The notes below the pieces were generated by a model. It saw only the letters and a program-made list of their open reading frames with translations, was not told the DNA's origin and did not search any database. Shown piece after piece: positions 38,890-49,792 of a stretch of 61,169 bases of DNA. Each line of letters opens with the position of its first letter. Position 1 is the stretch's first letter. The DNA comes from an uncultured archaeon (lineage in GTDB: Archaea > Thermoproteota > Bathyarchaeia > Bathyarchaeales > DTEX01), in NCBI GenBank assembly GCA_938091805.1, contig CALKGV010000027.1:1-61169 (forward strand). The letters are read 5' to 3'. The position numbers and the translations under genes were made by a program.

Positions 38890-38905
38890 AAAAATTTATT
38901 TGATT
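38890..38905 (+). promoter_or_regulatory. TATA-like box upstream of the acidic micro-ORF
   Basis: caaaaatttatttgat lies 30-45 nt upstream of ATG 38935, and a GGTGA Shine-Dalgarno sits at 38925-38929. Confidence 0.3.
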
Positions 38906-38934
38906 GTTATATTCTTCTCATGTGGGTGAACCCC

Positions 38935-39057
38935 ATGTCAAAGAGAAAGACCCCGCCAAAGGAGGAAGAGGAAGAAGAGGAAGAGTGGGAAGAAGAGTGG
39001 GGCGAAGAGGACTGGGAAGAAGAGGAAGAGTGGGAAGAAGAGGAAGAAGAGTGGTAA
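38935..39057 (+). CDS. 40-aa hyper-acidic Trp-punctuated micro-protein (MSKRKTPPKEEEEEEEEWEEEWGEEDWEEEEEWEEEEEEW)
   Basis: Hand translation. The ATG is preceded by GGTGA with a 5-nt spacer. The frame holds 24 Glu, 1 Asp and 5 Trp, with mixed GAA/GAG codons, and ends in TAA. The ORF is too short for the supplied track, which reports an out-of-frame Arg/Gly-rich reading (38904..39116) instead. Confidence 0.5.
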   Translation: MSKRKTPPKEEEEEEEEWEEEWGEEDWEEEEEWEEEEEEW

Positions 39058-39129
39058 GCCCCATCTTTAGCTTCCCAGCATTAACTGTAATAACCCCTAT
39101 TTTTACTAATTTTTAAGAATCAGCTTCTT

Positions 39130-39879
39130 TCAGGTTTTCATGGCGTGCAGTTTTCTTATTACAGAATAAATCCTCATAAGATCTTTCGAAAAATTTAGCT
39201 TCAGCCACCTCTCATAAAAAATGGACATTTTCCTTAAGGCAACGAATTTGCTATAAAGCTTCTTTTCCTCATCTATGAGATGCTTTTTTTCTATTCGCCC
39301 CTCAATGTTTTTCTTCATCAGTTTCATGTAACTATTAAGTATGCTCTTCGTTTTTCTTTCAATTCGTATTCTAACTCTATCAAGGAGCATTTTAACAGTT
39401 TTAGCATCGTTATCAATGATGGTCATTCTGGAAAATATTTTGGCGTCTTTGTCATTCTCTTTCATAAGCGTAAACAAATAGTTTACATTAAACAGGTTAC
39501 CCTTTTTGTCATATTTATTATTGTTGTGGCAGAAAGCATATACTGAACGGCAGATTTTTATGTAGGGCGTTCTCGAAAGTAGCCATCTGATTTTCCCCCC
39601 GTCATCCTTTCTGGCATTATACACAATAATGATGAGGCTGCCGAAATCAATAATGTTCCCCTCTTCATCATATATGGGTCTCCTAATTTCACGGGTTCTT
39701 TTAAGCAGCACCGGCTGATTTTCACCTATAATTTTTAGAGCTTCCTCAACTTTGCGATTTTCCACTTCCCAGAATGAACTACATATGCGTCTGCAACCTA
39801 AAGCATTAAGCCGCCTATATATCAACCCTCTATTTTCTTTCGAAGATTTATATGCAATATAAAATACCATTGTTGACAC
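39130..39879 (-). CDS. orphan hypothetical protein in the AT-rich island, with possible tandem Cas2/VapD-like beta-alpha-beta modules and a helical tail
   Basis: 249 aa. The gene is much more AT-rich than its neighbours (18/60 G+C counted in line 39301-39360). VFYIAY..(helix)..CRRICSSFWEV and IIIVYNA..(helix)..IKICRSVYAF repeat the same pattern. Confidence 0.6.
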   Translation of the reverse strand: MSTMVFYIAYKSSKENRGLIYRRLNALGCRRICSSFWEVENRKVEEALKIIGENQPVLLKRTREIRRPIYDEEGNIIDFGSLIIIVYNARKDDGGKIRWLLSRTPYIKICRSVYAFCHNNNKYDKKGNLFNVNYLFTLMKENDKDAKIFSRMTIIDNDAKTVKMLLDRVRIRIERKTKSILNSYMKLMKKNIEGRIEKKHLIDEEKKLYSKFVALRKMSIFYERWLKLNFSKDLMRIYSVIRKLHAMKT

Positions 39880-40159
39880 CTTAAACCTCGCCGGAGTCCT
39901 CCCGTGACTGTATTGGCATAGCTATTGTAAAACCCCTATGCCTATTGTCAGCCATCTATAAATTTTTATCGTTAACCTTTTAACCACTAATTAAATATGC
40001 GTTTCCTCATTTTATTTTTGTTTCTGCTTGTGAACGCAGATATTTCAATATTGTTTTCTCATTGTTTACCGATTTATCGTAAAGTTGAGCATTTTAGATT
40101 TTTACTGAAATGTTTTACTCATGGCTAAAAATTATTTCAATGGAAACATGATGTCAGCT

Positions 40160-40802
40160 GCCCACGGATAAATCCGTGGGCTTGAAGCTTTGGGTGGTTT
40201 TGGCGCCGCCTTCCACACCCTTCATACTTCAAGACGAGCCTACTGATGGAGGCTTCCCCCAGGAATCTGGCTCCAGAAATAGTATTTTGGGACGCTTACT
40301 TTCGGAGCCGCCCTGAGGGCGATGTTGAGGTTTGCCACTCGATCTCTATCTGCTTCGCATCCGCACTTGACGCATTTGAAGTAGACGTAGCCTTTCCAGT
40401 TTTCCCTGCCGACGTATCCACAGGTATTACGTTTTCTGAGGCGTCTAAGCCCTTCTATGACAATTTTAGCGTTGAACTGCTTGGCAAATCTAACTATTTC
40501 GTTTGCTATTTGCTATATTCTCGTTTTGACATAGTTTCTCTTCATTATGAGGCTAGTCAGCTTCCAGCCATCTTTAAGGTGCTTTCTTTCCTCAACTTAG
40601 CGTCGCCAACGTAGCCGAGGGCTTCCTTAACGAAATTAAGATAGCTTTCATAGGTTTCTCTAAGCAACTTTCCCTTAACCCTTGTGAGTTTAAGAATGTT
40701 GATAGGCAAACACTTCCTCGGAAGTGTTCCTAAAAGAATTTATAAAGAAGCTTTAATTTAAATACTTACTGTCGCAATTCCTCCCATGGTTAAAACCATG
40801 GG
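40160..40802 (-). mobile_element. decayed IS200/IS605-family element (tnpB-only, internally deleted) with both subterminal hairpins
   Basis: Perfect hairpins gcccacgg-ataaat-ccgtgggc (40160-40181) and cccatggtt-aa-aaccatggg (40783-40802) flank the tnpB remnant. Confidence 0.6.
40240..40709 (-). pseudogene. tnpB: tnpB (IS605 OrfB / RNA-guided nuclease) remnant
   Basis: Minus-strand translation gives ANEIVRFAKQFNAKIVIEGL....FKCVKCGCEADRDRVANLNIALRA, which is the RuvC-II region, zinc finger and RuvC-III. An in-frame stop, a frameshift and a short N-terminal piece (LPINILKLTRVKGKLLRETYESYLNFVKEA) precede it. Total coding potential is about 150 aa, against the roughly 400 aa expected. Confidence 0.7.
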
Positions 40803-41865
40803 CTTCCTTGCGACAGAGGATTGTGAAGATAATGGGGGATGTTATATTAAGTTGAAGATTAAAGCTGGTATCCTATTCAACCTTCCGAGTAAACCTGCAA
40901 GGGGCGAGAGCATTGACTACTTAGCTGAAGCTGAGGTTCTAGACCAGGTGGATGCTGTTCAGCGCTCTCTTGAGAAACTTGGAGTTGGTTACCAATTATT
41001 CCCCATAAAAGACGATGTTGAGGATTTAGTTACGGCTTTAAAGCAATATAGGCCAGATGTTGTCGTAAATTTATGTGAGGGATTTAGGGGTAATAGTCAT
41101 CTTGAGATGCACGTGCCAGCTATCCTGGAGATTCTGGGGATACCCTATACTGGAGCGGATCCTCTAGCGTTAGGGCTATGTCAAGATAAGGGTTTAGCTA
41201 AAGACTTGCTGAGGGCACATAATGTTCCAACGCCAAAATATCAGATAATGGAAGAATCTGGTCGTTTAAGAAGCGACCTGAAGTTTCCATTGTTCATCAA
41301 GCCTTTGAAGGAGGATGCTAGCATAGGGGTGTCAAAGCGTAGCTTTGTTAGGGATTTTGGAGAATTAAAGGCTCAGGTTGATTATGTAAATAAGGTTTAT
41401 GGGCAGCCAGCATTAGTTGAAGAGTTTATTGATGGAAGAGAATTGAATGTATCAGTTTTAGGTGATAAGGATCCCCTAGTTCTGCCAATATCTGAAATAA
41501 TATTTGACCTTCAAGATGGGCTGAAAATTGTTGATTACGCATCTAAGTGGCTTAAAGAGAGTGAAGAGTATGCTAGAACTAGGCCGGTGTGTCCAGCGGA
41601 TTTAGATGATGAGGTAAGAAGGATTGTTGAAGAAGTAGCCTTAAAGGCTTATAGGGCGCTGCGCTGCAGGGATTATGCGCGGGTTGATATACGTTTGGAA
41701 AGCCGAACTAAAATCCCATACGTCTTAGAGGTTAACCCGAACCCCGACATATCGCCTGAGGCTGGCTTTAACCGGTCGCTGAAGGCTGCCAATATAACAT
41801 TTGAGGATTTCATTATGATAATATTAAATTTTGCCCTTAAACGGAGTGGAAAACAAGGTTTCTAA
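40786..41865 (+). CDS. D-Ala-D-Ala-ligase-like ATP-grasp ligase, paralog 1
   Basis: ATP-grasp core (FPLFIKPLKEDASIGV, ALVEEFIDGRELNV, RVDIRL....YVLEVNPNP). The true start is probably TTG 40852 (LKIKAGILFNL, matching MKLKVGLTYNL of the paralog), because 40786-40802 lies inside the IS hairpin. Confidence 0.85.
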   Translation: MVKTMGFLATEDCEDNGGCYIKLKIKAGILFNLPSKPARGESIDYLAEAEVLDQVDAVQRSLEKLGVGYQLFPIKDDVEDLVTALKQYRPDVVVNLCEGFRGNSHLEMHVPAILEILGIPYTGADPLALGLCQDKGLAKDLLRAHNVPTPKYQIMEESGRLRSDLKFPLFIKPLKEDASIGVSKRSFVRDFGELKAQVDYVNKVYGQPALVEEFIDGRELNVSVLGDKDPLVLPISEIIFDLQDGLKIVDYASKWLKESEEYARTRPVCPADLDDEVRRIVEEVALKAYRALRCRDYARVDIRLESRTKIPYVLEVNPNPDISPEAGFNRSLKAANITFEDFIMIILNFALKRSGKQGF

Positions 41866-42913
41866 GCGGCTTATCCTTAATTAGATCCTGGAGACCATAC
41901 CTTTTAAGGGCTTGCCAAAGAATTGTGCATATGAGCTGCTCATAGGTTAAACCAGCAGCCCTTGCTGCTTCAGGTAAACATGAATGGGCATCAGGGTTTG
42001 GGATTAAACCGGGCAGTGGATTAACCTCCAAAACCCTTGGTGTGCTTTCACTATCTAACCTCATGTCTATGCGGCATAAATCTCTGCAATTTAGAACCTT
42101 AAATGTTTGAGTGGCAATATCTTTTATTTTGTTCTCGAGATTTAACGATATGCTCGCTGGGCACTCGAATATGTCTAGGGGTTTTTCCGGCGTATCCCAA
42201 ACCCATTTAGCCTCATAGGAGTATATTGGGCTGGCGCCGTTTGGCAGCTTATCAATTCGTATCTCAACTATTGGTAAAACAATCGGGTTTTCATTTCCAA
42301 TCAATCCAACTGTAAATTCTCTTCCAGGAAGGAACTCCTCAACAATGGCCGGCTGATTATAGGTTTCTATGATCCATAAAACCTGTTTTCTAAGGTTTTG
42401 CTCATCCTTAACTAGGGAGCTACTCCTAATGCCTTTGCTTGATCCCTCGGCTAGGGGCTTAACTACAAGTGGAAAATTTAAACAATCGCTAAGCTTTTCA
42501 TCAGCCCGCCTGAAAACCTGAAAGTTTGGGGATGGAATGCCGTAAGCGCTTAGGATTTTATGCGTTAAAGCCTTGTTTAGGCATATGGCAAGCGTATCTG
42601 GTCCAGAACCAGTATAGGGTATTCCAAGCATCTCTAGAATTACCGGTATATGTGACTCCCTGGACTCGCCACGGAAACCCTCAGCGATATTGAAAACTAT
42701 ATCCGGCTTCAACCTTCGAAGTTTACTGTAAGCATCCTCATTAGCTTCGATTTTTATAACTTTGCATCCTCCCATCTTTAGGGCCGAGGCTATAGCATCA
42801 ACGGTTTCTTCATCATCAAATTCTATGTAGAAATCCTCAGGTAAGTTTTCGTTAGCGCTAACTTTTCTTCTTAAATTATATGTAAGCCCAACCTTGAGTT
42901 TCATTGCGCACAT
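41837..42913 (-). CDS. D-Ala-D-Ala-ligase-like ATP-grasp ligase, paralog 2
   Basis: FPLVVKPLAEGSSKGI, AIVEEFLPGREFTV and RIDMRL....RVLEVNPLPG. The 3' end overlaps paralog 1 by 29 nt in convergent orientation. Confidence 0.85.
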   Translation of the reverse strand: MCAMKLKVGLTYNLRRKVSANENLPEDFYIEFDDEETVDAIASALKMGGCKVIKIEANEDAYSKLRRLKPDIVFNIAEGFRGESRESHIPVILEMLGIPYTGSGPDTLAICLNKALTHKILSAYGIPSPNFQVFRRADEKLSDCLNFPLVVKPLAEGSSKGIRSSSLVKDEQNLRKQVLWIIETYNQPAIVEEFLPGREFTVGLIGNENPIVLPIVEIRIDKLPNGASPIYSYEAKWVWDTPEKPLDIFECPASISLNLENKIKDIATQTFKVLNCRDLCRIDMRLDSESTPRVLEVNPLPGLIPNPDAHSCLPEAARAAGLTYEQLICTILWQALKRYGLQDLIKDKPLRNLVFHSV

Positions 42914-42954
42914 GCCCGCTGATGCCCAGCCTTAATATTCCGTTATACTACTCC

Positions 42955-44052
42955 TCATTTAACTGCTCTTTGTTGAATCTTGAGCAGTATGCGCTCCTCT
43001 TCTTCGGCTGGTATCTGCGGGTAAACATATATTTTTCCCTCATAGTTCCTTAAAACAACCTTTTCATCATCTATAGATAAAATGTAATCCGGCTGTAAGG
43101 GTATTTTCCCCCCGCCTCCAGGGGCATCGATAACGAAGCGCGGTATAGCTAGCCCCGATGTCCATCCGATGAGCGCTTCAAGTATTTTAATTCCAACTTC
43201 GACTCTCGTCCTGAAGTGATATGTGCCTTTAACAAGGTCCATTTGAAAGAGATAGTAGGGCTTTACACGAATCTTAAGTAGCTTCTGAAAAAGCTTCTTC
43301 ATTGTTTCAGGGTTATCATTAACTCCCCTAAGGAGAACAGATTGATTCCCAAGAGGTATGCCGGCGTCAGCCAGTAACCCGCAAGCCCTCTCGCTTTCCT
43401 CAGTTATTTCATTAGGATGCTCAAAGTGCACGTTCACGTATAATGGATGGTATTTTTTAAGAATTTTACATAATCTAGGCGTTATTCTCTGCGGCAACGT
43501 GCATGGAATCCTTGAACCTATTCTCAGTATTTCGACGTGAGGGATGGCCCTGAGTTTCTTGAGTAAAAACTCTATCGTGTCGTCTGGCAACATGAAGGGG
43601 TCTCCACCTGAGAGGAGAACATCTCTGATGCCAGTGTTCTCCCTTATATAATTGATCTGCGCCAGATACAAATCTTTAGAGAAGTTAATGAGGGGCTTCC
43701 CAACTTTTCTTTTTCTCGTGCAGAATCTGCAGTATGTGGCGCAGCTATTTGAGATGCACATTAAAACCCTGTCTGGATACCTATGAACCAAGCCTGGTAT
43801 TGGGCTTTCCTCCTCCTCGCTCAGCGGGTCATCATATCCATACGGGTCTTGGAGCTCAAGCGGGCTTGGGACGCATTGCTTCCAGATTGGATCCTCAACC
43901 TCTTCTATGAGGTCAAAGTAGTATCTTGAAATAAACATCGGATATTTCTCAACAACAGCCTTGATGGGGTTTATGTCGACGTTAAATTTATCTAAAATCT
44001 GCTCCGGTTTAGTTATGCTATTTTTAAGTATACTTTTCCAATCTTCTATCAT
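42955..44052 (-). CDS. KamA-family radical-SAM/PLP aminomutase (lysine 2,3-aminomutase-like, short form)
   Basis: CATYCRFCTRKR is the CxxxCxxC motif. SGGDPF, LLRGVNDN and overall KamA pattern are present. The protein is 365 aa and lacks the long C-terminal domain of clostridial KamA. Confidence 0.85.
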   Translation of the reverse strand: MIEDWKSILKNSITKPEQILDKFNVDINPIKAVVEKYPMFISRYYFDLIEEVEDPIWKQCVPSPLELQDPYGYDDPLSEEEESPIPGLVHRYPDRVLMCISNSCATYCRFCTRKRKVGKPLINFSKDLYLAQINYIRENTGIRDVLLSGGDPFMLPDDTIEFLLKKLRAIPHVEILRIGSRIPCTLPQRITPRLCKILKKYHPLYVNVHFEHPNEITEESERACGLLADAGIPLGNQSVLLRGVNDNPETMKKLFQKLLKIRVKPYYLFQMDLVKGTYHFRTRVEVGIKILEALIGWTSGLAIPRFVIDAPGGGGKIPLQPDYILSIDDEKVVLRNYEGKIYVYPQIPAEEEERILLKIQQRAVK

Positions 44053-44118
44053 TCTTCTTTACGCGCGCTCACTGTAGCACGCTTAGATGCTACGAAAATA
44101 TATGTGTGCACAGCACAT

Positions 44119-44130
44119 TATATATTTAAA
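44119..44130 (-). promoter_or_regulatory. TATA-like box upstream of the kamA-like gene
   Basis: The minus strand reads tttaaatatata about 70 nt upstream of ATG 44052. An adjacent TGTGCACA palindrome lies at 44104-44111. Confidence 0.3.
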
Positions 44131-44144
44131 GTTTTCTATCAATT

Positions 44145-44170
44145 CTTCTAGACTTCTTAAAGTCTAGAAG
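44145..44170. terminator. perfect 10-bp hairpin directly after the GNAT stop codon
   Basis: cttctagact (44145-44154), loop tcttaa, agtctagaag (44161-44170), 6 nt from the GNAT stop. Confidence 0.4.
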
Positions 44171-44175
44171 TCTTC

Positions 44176-44685
44176 TTAAAGATTCAGGACGTAAACGTCC
44201 TCACTGTAATATGTGCCGTCTTTAAGAATTCTCCTCACGCCTTCAAGCTTAAATCCGGCCTTCTCAGCCACATGTTTCATGGCGCTGTTCTCCTCAAGAG
44301 TTTCTATGATCAATTTTCTAATGCCCCTTCCTTTAGCCAACTTGATGGATTCTTTTACGAGGCTTGTTGCAACGCCCTTCCCCCAGTAATTTGGATGCAC
44401 GCTTATGCCTATGCTTGCAGCTTTCCCAGATTCTTCGTTAATGCGCCATAAGGCTAAGAAACCGATCGTCCGTCCTTCATGTTTAGCTATCAGAACATCT
44501 GCAAGATTGTTGTTTTGAAGATCCATGAAAAACTTCCTATACTCTTCAAGTTCCTTTTCAAAGTCTTCATCCGCATAATCAATAAGCCATTTTTTAACCA
44601 TAGGGTGGCGTTCAATCTCTACGATAGATTTAACGTCCTCATCCCTAAGAGGGGTCTGCTTGGCATTAATAATTTCAAATCTCAA
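44176..44685 (-). CDS. GNAT-family N-acetyltransferase (RimJ/RimL-like)
   Basis: VHPNYWGKGVATSLV acetyl-CoA binding block in a 169-aa protein. Confidence 0.85.
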   Translation of the reverse strand: MRFEIINAKQTPLRDEDVKSIVEIERHPMVKKWLIDYADEDFEKELEEYRKFFMDLQNNNLADVLIAKHEGRTIGFLALWRINEESGKAASIGISVHPNYWGKGVATSLVKESIKLAKGRGIRKLIIETLEENSAMKHVAEKAGFKLEGVRRILKDGTYYSEDVYVLNL

Positions 44686-49318: not shown

Positions 49319-49792
49319 CTAATCGAGTTTTATGCGCATTAAATAGGCATTCTCTCCATCAGCGTAGTATCCCCTAACAATTCTATCAATTTTGAAGCCT
49401 ATTTTTTTATAAAGGTTTATTGCTGGGGTATTGCTAACACGAACTTCTAAATAGCATTCTTTTACGTCGTAATGGGCCGCCATGGCATGTAACGCCTCTT
49501 TAAGTAGTGCCCCGCCAATGCCCTTACGCCTATAGCTCGGTAAAACAGCTATTGAGACAACGTGTCCTCTCTTTATTAGACCTAGGCCTGAAAAACCACT
49601 TTCAATGCGGCACATAATGTAGCCAACAACTTTCTTCTCTTCCTCCGCAACAATAAATGTTTCTGGAAAATTATTATATAACTCTATAAAGAAGTGCGTT
49701 GAATAATTTTCAGGTAGACATACTTGGTTTATATAAATTACTTGGCTCAGATCTTCAGGCTTAAACTTCCTTACATTAAATGGGTGATCCAC
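49319..49792 (-). CDS. rimI: RimI/Ard1-type protein N-acetyltransferase (GNAT)
   Basis: VLPSYRRKGIGGALL block in a 157-aa protein. Confidence 0.8.
   Translation of the reverse strand: MDHPFNVRKFKPEDLSQVIYINQVCLPENYSTHFFIELYNNFPETFIVAEEEKKVVGYIMCRIESGFSGLGLIKRGHVVSIAVLPSYRRKGIGGALLKEALHAMAAHYDVKECYLEVRVSNTPAINLYKKIGFKIDRIVRGYYADGENAYLMRIKLD

Follow-up and report, generated by a model that had tools for sequence, protein, structure and literature searches.

Introduction

β-Lysine has three known uses, in the compatible solute Nε-acetyl-β-lysine, in the modification of EF-P and in antibiotics. The solute is produced by AblA and AblB in methanogens, and by the products of yodP-kamA in Bacillus. 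Among ATP-grasp enzymes, carnosine synthase ligates a β-amino acid, and Ngg, in which a GNAT and an ATP-grasp domain are fused, makes the osmolyte N-acetylglutaminylglutamine, the carboxylate of which is tailored by the PP-loop amidotransferase AsnO. Here we analyse a locus that brings several of these activities together. It lies in a 61 169-nucleotide (nt) stretch of DNA, hereafter the window, from an uncultured archaeon of the Bathyarchaeia (contig CALKGV010000027.1 of assembly GCA_938091805.1), and encodes a KamA-family aminomutase, two ATP-grasp ligases of the D-alanine–D-alanine ligase (Ddl) type, termed G1 and G2, and a GNAT acetyltransferase.

An initial annotation of the window had proposed that the four genes serve the ATP-dependent condensation of a β-amino acid, and that the combination matches no characterized pathway. 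The latter statement still holds: we found no description of this gene combination in the full-text literature searched, although it may be mentioned elsewhere. Public annotations of the products read ‘KamA family radical SAM protein’, ‘ATP-grasp domain-containing protein’ and ‘D-alanine-D-alanine ligase’. The comparisons reported below make it fairly probable that the cassette converts lysine to β-lysine and carries this through two sequential amide ligations and an N-acetylation into a small β-lysine-containing compound.

Results

The genes are syntenic in many bacterial and archaeal lineages

Using an alignment of eight G2 sequences, we scanned one genome per GTDB species and obtained at least 600 matches, of which the best 80 loci were classified with group-specific hidden Markov models. 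KamA was syntenic with two ligase genes in 67 of these 80 loci: 58 contained G2, G1, GNAT and KamA, eight G2, G1 and KamA, and one two G2 genes and KamA. The other arrangements were G1 and G2 only (five loci, three of them on incomplete contigs), G1 and G2 with GNAT (two loci) and G2 alone (six loci). The loci are spread over roughly a dozen lineages or more, bacterial as well as archaeal, among them Ignavibacteria/Melioribacter, Kryptonia, Gemmatimonadota, Desulfuromonadales, Aminicenantes/Acidobacteriota, Planctomycetota, Verrucomicrobiota, Firmicutes, Omnitrophota, Marinimicrobia and DPANN archaea, and bacteria and archaea share the cassette at 45–58% identity. Nine Bathyarchaeia-type contigs with otherwise different neighbours keep the layout of the window, in which KamA precedes G2 and G1 is read towards them from the opposite side. 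The bacterial operons have the order G2-G1-GNAT(160 amino acids, aa)-KamA and unrelated flanks, e.g. RecG and CcmF in Ignavibacterium album. Clustering of all neighbours of the 80 loci revealed no further recurrent partner (transporter, carrier protein, efp or peptidase); the neighbour clusters consisted of lineage-specific housekeeping genes only (RecG, ThyX, PlsY, GpsA, NAD kinase and DnaG).

The same modules also occur as fusions (denoted by ~). In a survey of 150 representatives at 50% identity, 43 carried more than one cassette module, namely KamA~G2 (two), G2~KamA (one), G2~G1 (16), G1~G2 (five), G2~G2 (17) and triple G2 (two); beyond these 43, protein P0236 has a GNAT domain fused to a ligase of the G1 type. 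When one KamA~G2 fusion was used as query, about 100 fused clusters of roughly 690–790 aa were found in Thermoplasmatota, Methanocellales, Woesearchaeota, Nanoarchaeota, Spirochaetales and Deltaproteobacteria. Such a fusion is accompanied by G1 and GNAT in Methanocellales (L090), by G1 in Woesearchaeota (L092), and by a G2-like and a G1-like gene in Deltaproteobacteria (L093). On a metagenome contig (L091), KamA~G2 is followed by G1~GNAT, so that the entire system is contained in two polypeptides; the ligase domain of this G1~GNAT protein is 45% identical to G1 of the window. The fusion partners are constant, KamA always being joined to the G2 type and GNAT always to the G1 type, which suggests that KamA and G2 catalyse adjacent steps, as do G1 and GNAT. 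Because the genes are syntenic in 67 of 80 loci and their parts are fused pairwise elsewhere, the grouping is not due to chance. The gene-neighbourhood census that the initial annotation had proposed thus came out in favour of a functional link between the ligases and KamA.

In a deltaproteobacterial locus (L085, 8001–15168), the cassette is split by genes for a PAS histidine kinase, a sigma-54 NtrC-type activator and a receiver protein, which hints at environmental regulation.

The KamA homologue has the residues of a lysine aminomutase

KamA of the window passes the TIGR00238 subfamily model (299.6 bits; cut-off 199.2) and contains the motifs CATYCRFC (CxxxCxxC) and LLSGGDPF, in agreement with its first description as a short-form KamA protein. 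Its closest homologues (71–94% identity) come from Candidatus Bathyarchaeia. The protein aligns with the lysine 2,3-aminomutase (LAM) of Clostridium subterminale (structure 2A5H; E = 2e-117) such that C104, C108 and C111 correspond to C125, C129 and C132, and K316 to K337, which binds pyridoxal phosphate (PLP). All of these residues are conserved in 56 of 56 cassette KamAs, as is the equivalent of R134, which the window KamA likewise retains. The same is true of D272 and D309, the counterparts of D293 and D330 of 2A5H, the Asp pair that binds the ε-ammonium group of lysine in that enzyme; glutamate 2,3-aminomutase reportedly has Lys and Asn at these two positions. Two features set the protein apart from clostridial LAM: the equivalent of the Zn-site residue C268 is Asn (D, N, E or S in cassette members), and the C-terminal domain of about 50 aa is absent, KamA ending about 20 residues past the last position aligned with 2A5H.

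The best-scoring NCBIfam model for this protein is that of AblA (TIGR03820), with 479.2 bits against an equivalog cut-off of 525.4, and the bacterial cassette KamAs likewise stay below this value (469–480 bits). Scores also fell short of the cut-offs of the models for glutamate 2,3-aminomutase (435 versus 650 bits), arginine aminomutase (338 versus 600 bits) and EpmB (TIGR03821; 243.8 bits, E = 2e-72, versus 369.3), the last of which gave 234–257 bits with bacterial cassette KamAs. Since the lysine-specific residues are kept and the glutamate, arginine and EpmB cut-offs are missed, the substrate of KamA is most likely lysine and its product β-lysine. Of the β-amino acids that had been considered at first, the lysine type is therefore upheld, while glutamate is disfavoured by both the Asp pair and the model score.

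G1 and G2 are two differentiated relatives of Ddl

The two ligases are 39% identical to each other across 344 residues (E = 2e-78), which bears out their initial assignment as paralogues, and both match the Pfam family Dala_Dala_lig_C (E = 6e-39 for G2 and 6.5e-32 for G1). Ddl models are the top matches of either protein, and the best solved-structure match of G2 is Escherichia coli DdlB (E = 5e-30). Neither protein reaches a Ddl cut-off, be it that of NF002378 (203.2 bits for G2 and 163.9 for G1; cut-off 243) or that of TIGR01205 (161.7 and 152.9 bits; cut-off 245.65). The catalytic residues K97, K144, E180, E187, K215, R255, D257, E270 and N272 of DdlB are kept in both G1 and G2 (51–59 orthologues each), and because these ATP/Mg residues are retained, both are presumably active ligases.

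Differences from Ddl are found in the substrate pocket. Trp occupies the position of DdlB Y216 in both proteins. G2 keeps the equivalents of S150, Y210, G276 and S281, the last of which, in Ddl, clamps the incoming amino acid by its carboxylate. In addition, G2 has Cys in place of L282 and an invariant R85. In the G1 pocket, EDAS replaces EGSS and NPNPD replaces NPLPG, by which G1 gains two invariant Asp residues (G149D and G276D; D177 and D321 in the window protein), and S150A, L282G and S281A (or S/T) are further changes. The differences between the G1 and G2 pockets are invariant within each group. As for Ddl membership, the D-Ala-binding set (S150, Y216, S281, L282; E15) is not preserved; alignment of the N-terminal domain to Ddl is ambiguous in the E15/E68 region, with HMMER and MAFFT disagreeing near E68, and was not relied on. 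The two Asp residues gained by its pocket suggest that G1 binds a partner presenting a free ammonium group. G2 may accept a carboxylate-presenting one, so that the paralogues would carry out two different ligation steps.

The acetyltransferase is a small RimI-like protein

The cassette GNAT matches Acetyltransf_3 (1.3e-20, 75 bits; cut-off 25.4) and Acetyltransf_1 (4.7e-19, 69 bits), and the acetyl-CoA-type motif YWGKGVAT (Q/R-x-x-G-x-G/A) is legible in its translation. RimI is its top NCBIfam match (47 bits); the 25 best of 27 matches with E ≤ 0.01 include no AblB model, and AblB is about 270 aa long compared with 169 aa here. Models of spermidine and streptothricin acetyltransferases are matched weakly, far below their cut-offs. 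A GNAT gene was present in 60 of the 80 loci, and its place varies: a GNAT of 50% identity is encoded either upstream of KamA, as in the window and in L006, or beyond G1, as in L004 and L008. The initial view of GNAT as a pathway member needs qualification in this respect, GNAT being frequent and not universal.

A second, unrelated GNAT gene (157 aa; 49319–49792, minus strand) lies between gatC and a LarA-like gene and is not part of the cassette; the same gatC/GNAT/LarA-like arrangement is found in L006 and L007.

Members of the ligase family in other contexts

In two loci of Thermodesulfobacteriota/Deltaproteobacteria (L014, 5455–10072; L017, 2837–7449), a G2-G1 pair that shares the pocket signature of the cassette ligases follows genes for a deoxyhypusine synthase (DHS) homologue and agmatinase, joined in L017 by a pyruvoyl arginine decarboxylase in a polyamine-type operon; there is no KamA or GNAT near either pair. 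Two DPANN loci (L092, 10369–11691; L089, 3204–4529) encode, in the expected place of GNAT, a conserved protein of about 440 aa that is 41% identical between them, carries an SFGKDS PP-loop-like motif and weakly matches QueC (E = 0.003); no relative of it was found in the PDB. Its function may be a tailoring step, either amidation of a carboxylate or adenylation. L089 additionally contains an ornithine/diaminopimelate decarboxylase and a third ATP-grasp gene.

A more distant family member on plasmid pTHIMO01 of Thioflavicoccus mobilis (L095; NC_019941.1, 6691–12172) is flanked by genes for a diaminobutyrate (DABA) transaminase, SbnA, an SbnB-like cyclodeaminase and a convergent KamA, so that one ligase of the wider family stands next to three routes to diamino acids. 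Many rhizobial plasmids, among them the symbiosis plasmids L094, L096 and L097, carry G2-like genes of 36–40% identity; that of L096 is accompanied by an MFS transporter, a dipeptide ABC system and an M81 peptidase, and that of NGR234 adjoins a CapA-family gene. On R. leguminosarum pRlvC, KamA stands beside a biotin-carboxylase-like ATP-grasp gene and an M81 peptidase. Collectively, these contexts connect ligases of this family with diamino acids or diamines as well as with small peptides.

Organization of the locus in the window

The features of the locus are listed in Table 1. The four genes, the 41 nt between the KamA stop codon and the G2 start codon, the 29-nt overlap of the convergent 3′ ends of G1 and G2 (both from open reading frame coordinates), the hairpin and the TATA-like box were all recovered from the sequence as initially annotated. 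The start of G1 is placed only to within a few codons, as its orthologues are 343–361 aa long. G2 is predicted to be co-transcribed with KamA.

Table 1. Features of the β-lysine cassette locus; coordinates refer to the window.
Feature	Position	Strand	Basis or details
ATP-grasp ligase G1, G2 paralogue, convergent, 359 aa	40786–41865	+	Dala_Dala_lig_C
ATP-grasp ligase G2, Ddl-like, 358 aa	41837–42913	−	Dala_Dala_lig_C
Short-form KamA-family radical-SAM/PLP aminomutase, 365 aa	42955–44052	−	Radical_SAM and LAM_C, TIGR00238
Inverted repeat GTAGCA-N8-TGCTAC in presumed KamA leader	44074–44093	−	Read from sequence
TATA-like box TTTAAATATATA, about 70 nt 5′ of KamA start codon	44119–44130	−	Read from sequence
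Perfect hairpin 3′ of GNAT stop codon	44145–44170		Arms 44145–44155 and 44160–44170
GNAT N-acetyltransferase, 169 aa	44176–44685	−	Pfam Acetyltransf_3 and Acetyltransf_1

The two regulatory-looking elements fared differently in the closest syntenic relatives compared, L006 and L007. Both relatives keep the TATA-like region and the leader that follows it, and a promoter role can be inferred for the TATA-like box. The hairpin, whose arms of 11 nt are 100% complementary and enclose a loop of 4 nt, was not found in either relative, which rules it out as a conserved terminator or regulator; given that the TATA region and leader are kept where it is missing, it is probably not a functional part. The inverted repeat of the leader is identical in both relatives, which are so close that this conservation carries little weight. 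Control of the cassette by a riboswitch or another RNA was also considered and rejected, as there was no Rfam family upstream of the cassette in eight bacterial loci, nor anywhere within the window. Likewise, none of the four proteins matched any PADLOC model (E ≤ 0.001), so that a defence system can be dismissed.

Elsewhere, the window has the gene content of an ordinary archaeal chromosome (TFB, S8e, SRP19, aEF-1α, SMC, TruD, GatCA and PdxA). About 640 nt directly 5′ of the G1 start codon (40150–40780) are absent from the syntenic L006 and L007. On the minus strand, this segment encodes the degraded remains of a TnpB/Cas12f-like C-terminus (...AKIVIEGLRRLRK...YFKCVKCGCEADRDRVANLNIALRA), interrupted by stops and a frameshift, its Pfam match to Cas12f1-like_TNB being weak and under its cut-off (E = 1.2e-4, 22.6 bits), and hairpins lie near both of its ends (about 40163–40182 and 40712–40735); it looks like an IS200/IS605-type remnant. 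An open reading frame of 122 aa antisense to the TnpB-like remnant (40246–40614, plus strand) is probably spurious. The cassette adjoins a 249-aa open reading frame (39130–39879, minus strand) that belongs to no Pfam, NCBIfam or PADLOC family; L006 and L007 have a 246-aa gene without Pfam family at this position, whereas such a gene does not accompany the cassette in other lineages. Between the 249-aa frame and an Ogg glycosylase gene, a purine-rich tandem repeat, (AGGAAGAAG)n, runs to about 10 copies (38960–39058), and the 70-aa open reading frame that overlaps it (38904–39116) is Arg/Gly low-complexity.

Discussion

A putative pathway from lysine to a β-lysine conjugate

Taken together, synteny, fusions and missed model cut-offs make ATP-dependent condensation of a β-amino acid, as initially proposed, the best-supported reading of the locus. 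Thematic support comes from the variant loci L014 and L017 and from the Thioflavicoccus plasmid, in which members of this ligase family are found with genes that supply diamines or diamino acids. KamA, G2 and G1 would form the core of a self-contained biosynthetic cassette, with GNAT as a frequent accessory. In the pathway that we envisage, KamA would isomerize L-lysine to β-lysine (3,6-diaminohexanoate); G2 would take β-lysine directly and make a first amide bond via an acyl-phosphate; G1 would make a second, different amide bond; and GNAT would acetylate an amine that is still free. This would yield a small β-lysine-containing (iso)peptide or conjugate, cytoplasmic and usually N-acetylated. 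With much lower confidence than we attach to this pathway logic, the analogy with AblAB and with Ngg/AsnO, together with the lack of export or carrier genes, suggests that this product could serve the cell as a compatible solute, as a protectant against stress or as a polyamine-like cation. Gene content, synteny, fusions, the retained catalytic and lysine-specific residues and the divergence of the two ligase pockets are observations, from which we infer the order of the steps, the co-substrates, the product and its physiological role.

A number of observations weigh against this pathway. Twenty of the 80 loci lack GNAT, among them the Bathyarchaeia contigs L001–L003, L010 and L011, and the GNATs of archaeal and bacterial cassettes are barely similar, so that acetylation may be optional or non-orthologous. 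β-Lysine may not be an obligatory substrate of the ligases, because the pairs in L014 and L017 have the cassette pocket signature without a nearby KamA, and G2-type genes also occur alone (e.g. L018, L066, L071, L083 and L087). The habitats of the hosts (groundwater, soil, hot springs and digesters) give no specific pointer to osmotic stress.

Alternative readings

Rather than a small compound, the ligases might build an oligo- or poly-β-lysine polycation by iterative action, forming β- or ε-amide linkages in the manner of RimK or cyanophycin synthetase, with GNAT controlling or detoxifying the polycation; the polymer could be a polyamine surrogate or serve storage or defence. β-Lysine is chemically a carboxymethyl-substituted putrescine, and several findings would suit such a product: the position of the ligase pair behind DHS, agmatinase and arginine decarboxylase genes in L014/L017, the diamino-acid supply genes beside the related Thioflavicoccus ligase, the two extra invariant Asp residues in the G1 pocket, the retention of the system by genome-reduced DPANN archaea, and the weak resemblance of GNAT to spermidine and streptothricin acetyltransferases. 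However, the scores behind this resemblance are far below the cut-offs, the linkage to polyamine genes is limited to one lineage, and a primer, carrier or export gene never recurs among the 80 loci. Moreover, Ddl-type enzymes are not known to work iteratively, and we therefore regard a polymer as unlikely. A role in the β-lysylation of a protein, be it EF-P, aIF5A or another, with the ATP-grasp ligases replacing the lysyl-tRNA-synthetase paralogue EpmA, is harder still to reconcile with the data. KamA is homologous to EpmB (E = 2e-72), some ATP-grasp enzymes (RimK and TTL) do modify proteins, and the only other partner of the ligase pair is a homologue of DHS, the other enzyme for lysine extension of the IF5A type. 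Yet the EpmB cut-off is missed by a wide interval in the window and in bacterial members alike (244 versus 369 bits in the window; 234–257 in bacteria), no efp or aIF5A gene recurs beside the cassette in the 80 loci, the nearest structural relatives of the ligases act on small molecules, and the DHS operon of L017 is also compatible with polyamine synthesis. In addition, a cassette shared between bacteria and archaea at 45–58% identity fits poorly with a target that would differ between the two domains (EF-P or aIF5A), and we consider this reading very improbable.

The most conventional explanation would be ordinary synthesis of Nε-acetyl-β-lysine by AblA and AblB next to unrelated ATP-grasp genes, or next to ordinary D-Ala-D-Ala ligases. 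That AblA is the top NCBIfam model for KamA (479 bits), and that Ddl models rank highest for both ligases, is what one would expect in this case. Nevertheless, every equivalog cut-off is missed, the 169-aa GNAT has no AblB model among its 25 best of 27 matches, and the ligase genes accompany KamA in 67 of 80 loci and are fused to KamA and GNAT elsewhere. The D-Ala-binding positions are altered (Y216W in both ligases; S150A, G276D and L282G in G1), and the host is an archaeon, in which peptidoglycan is not expected. We find this explanation scarcely credible. Neither of the outcomes that, according to the initial annotation, would have refuted its proposal was obtained: KamA scores below the AblA cut-off (479 versus 525.4 bits) and its GNAT companion, a 169-aa protein with RimI as best match, is not AblB-like; and the ligases, at 203 and 164 bits against 243, are not ordinary Ddl.

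Implications

Among these possibilities, we favour a small β-lysine conjugate. The broader proposition, that the cassette makes an undescribed class of β-lysine-derived metabolite, either a compatible solute or a peptide-like polyamine surrogate, by means of a dedicated aminomutase and a heteromeric pair of Ddl-like ligases in both prokaryotic domains (Bathyarchaeia, Thermoplasmatota, Methanocellales, DPANN archaea, Ignavibacteria, Gemmatimonadota, Desulfuromonadales and Acidobacteriota), seems to us evenly poised between right and wrong. Known enzyme families and known β-lysine logic would here be combined in an undescribed, widespread and self-contained pathway. If so, a common small molecule has gone unrecognized in hundreds of species, including abundant uncultured Bathyarchaeia of sediments and genome-reduced DPANN archaea, and β-lysine biochemistry extends past its three known uses. 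A large gene family labelled ‘D-alanine--D-alanine ligase’ would also gain a function in organisms, archaea included, that do not need this enzyme. The hypothesis is directly testable because the system comprises few genes (four, or two in some organisms) and occurs in cultivable bacteria such as Ignavibacterium, Melioribacter and Desulfuromonas/Trichloromonas.

Comparison with known systems

The cassette shares with AblA/AblB the combination of a KamA-family lysine 2,3-aminomutase and a GNAT in a compact, horizontally mobile unit, and AblA is its closest NCBIfam model. It departs from that system in the sub-threshold score of KamA (479 against 525.4 bits), which is of the short form and lacks the C-terminal domain and the Zn cysteine; in its GNAT, which is small and RimI/RimJ-like; and in its core, to which the two ATP-grasp ligases belong while GNAT is dispensable. 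With the DdlB/VanA family, G1 and G2 have in common the overall fold and all residues for ATP, Mg and the acyl-phosphate. In contrast to Ddl, they fall under every Ddl cut-off, have Trp for Y216 and a YN...AE(F/W)D region in place of the N-terminal GGxSxE motif, and occur together as two differentiated paralogues, often fused, in the company of KamA and GNAT instead of cell-wall genes.

Ngg/AsnO offers a parallel in its fusion of GNAT with an ATP-grasp domain, and AsnO one to the PP-loop-like protein of 440 aa beside the DPANN cassettes L092 and L089; the ATP-grasp subfamily is another one, however, and Ngg/AsnO has no aminomutase and uses α-amino acids as building blocks. Carnosine synthase (CARNS1/ATPGD1) and the bacterial L-amino-acid ligases likewise are ATP-grasp enzymes that join one free (β-)amino acid to another without ribosome or non-ribosomal peptide synthetase, but they are single enzymes of an unrelated subfamily that have no dedicated partner to form the β-amino acid. 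In EpmB/EpmA, finally, a short-form KamA homologue feeds β-lysine to an ATP-dependent ligase, as we propose for KamA and G2. There, the ligase is a lysyl-tRNA-synthetase paralogue and the acceptor a protein; here, KamA remains below the EpmB cut-off, the 80 loci revealed no recurrent neighbour of the size of efp, and the ligases are a differentiated pair of the Ddl type.

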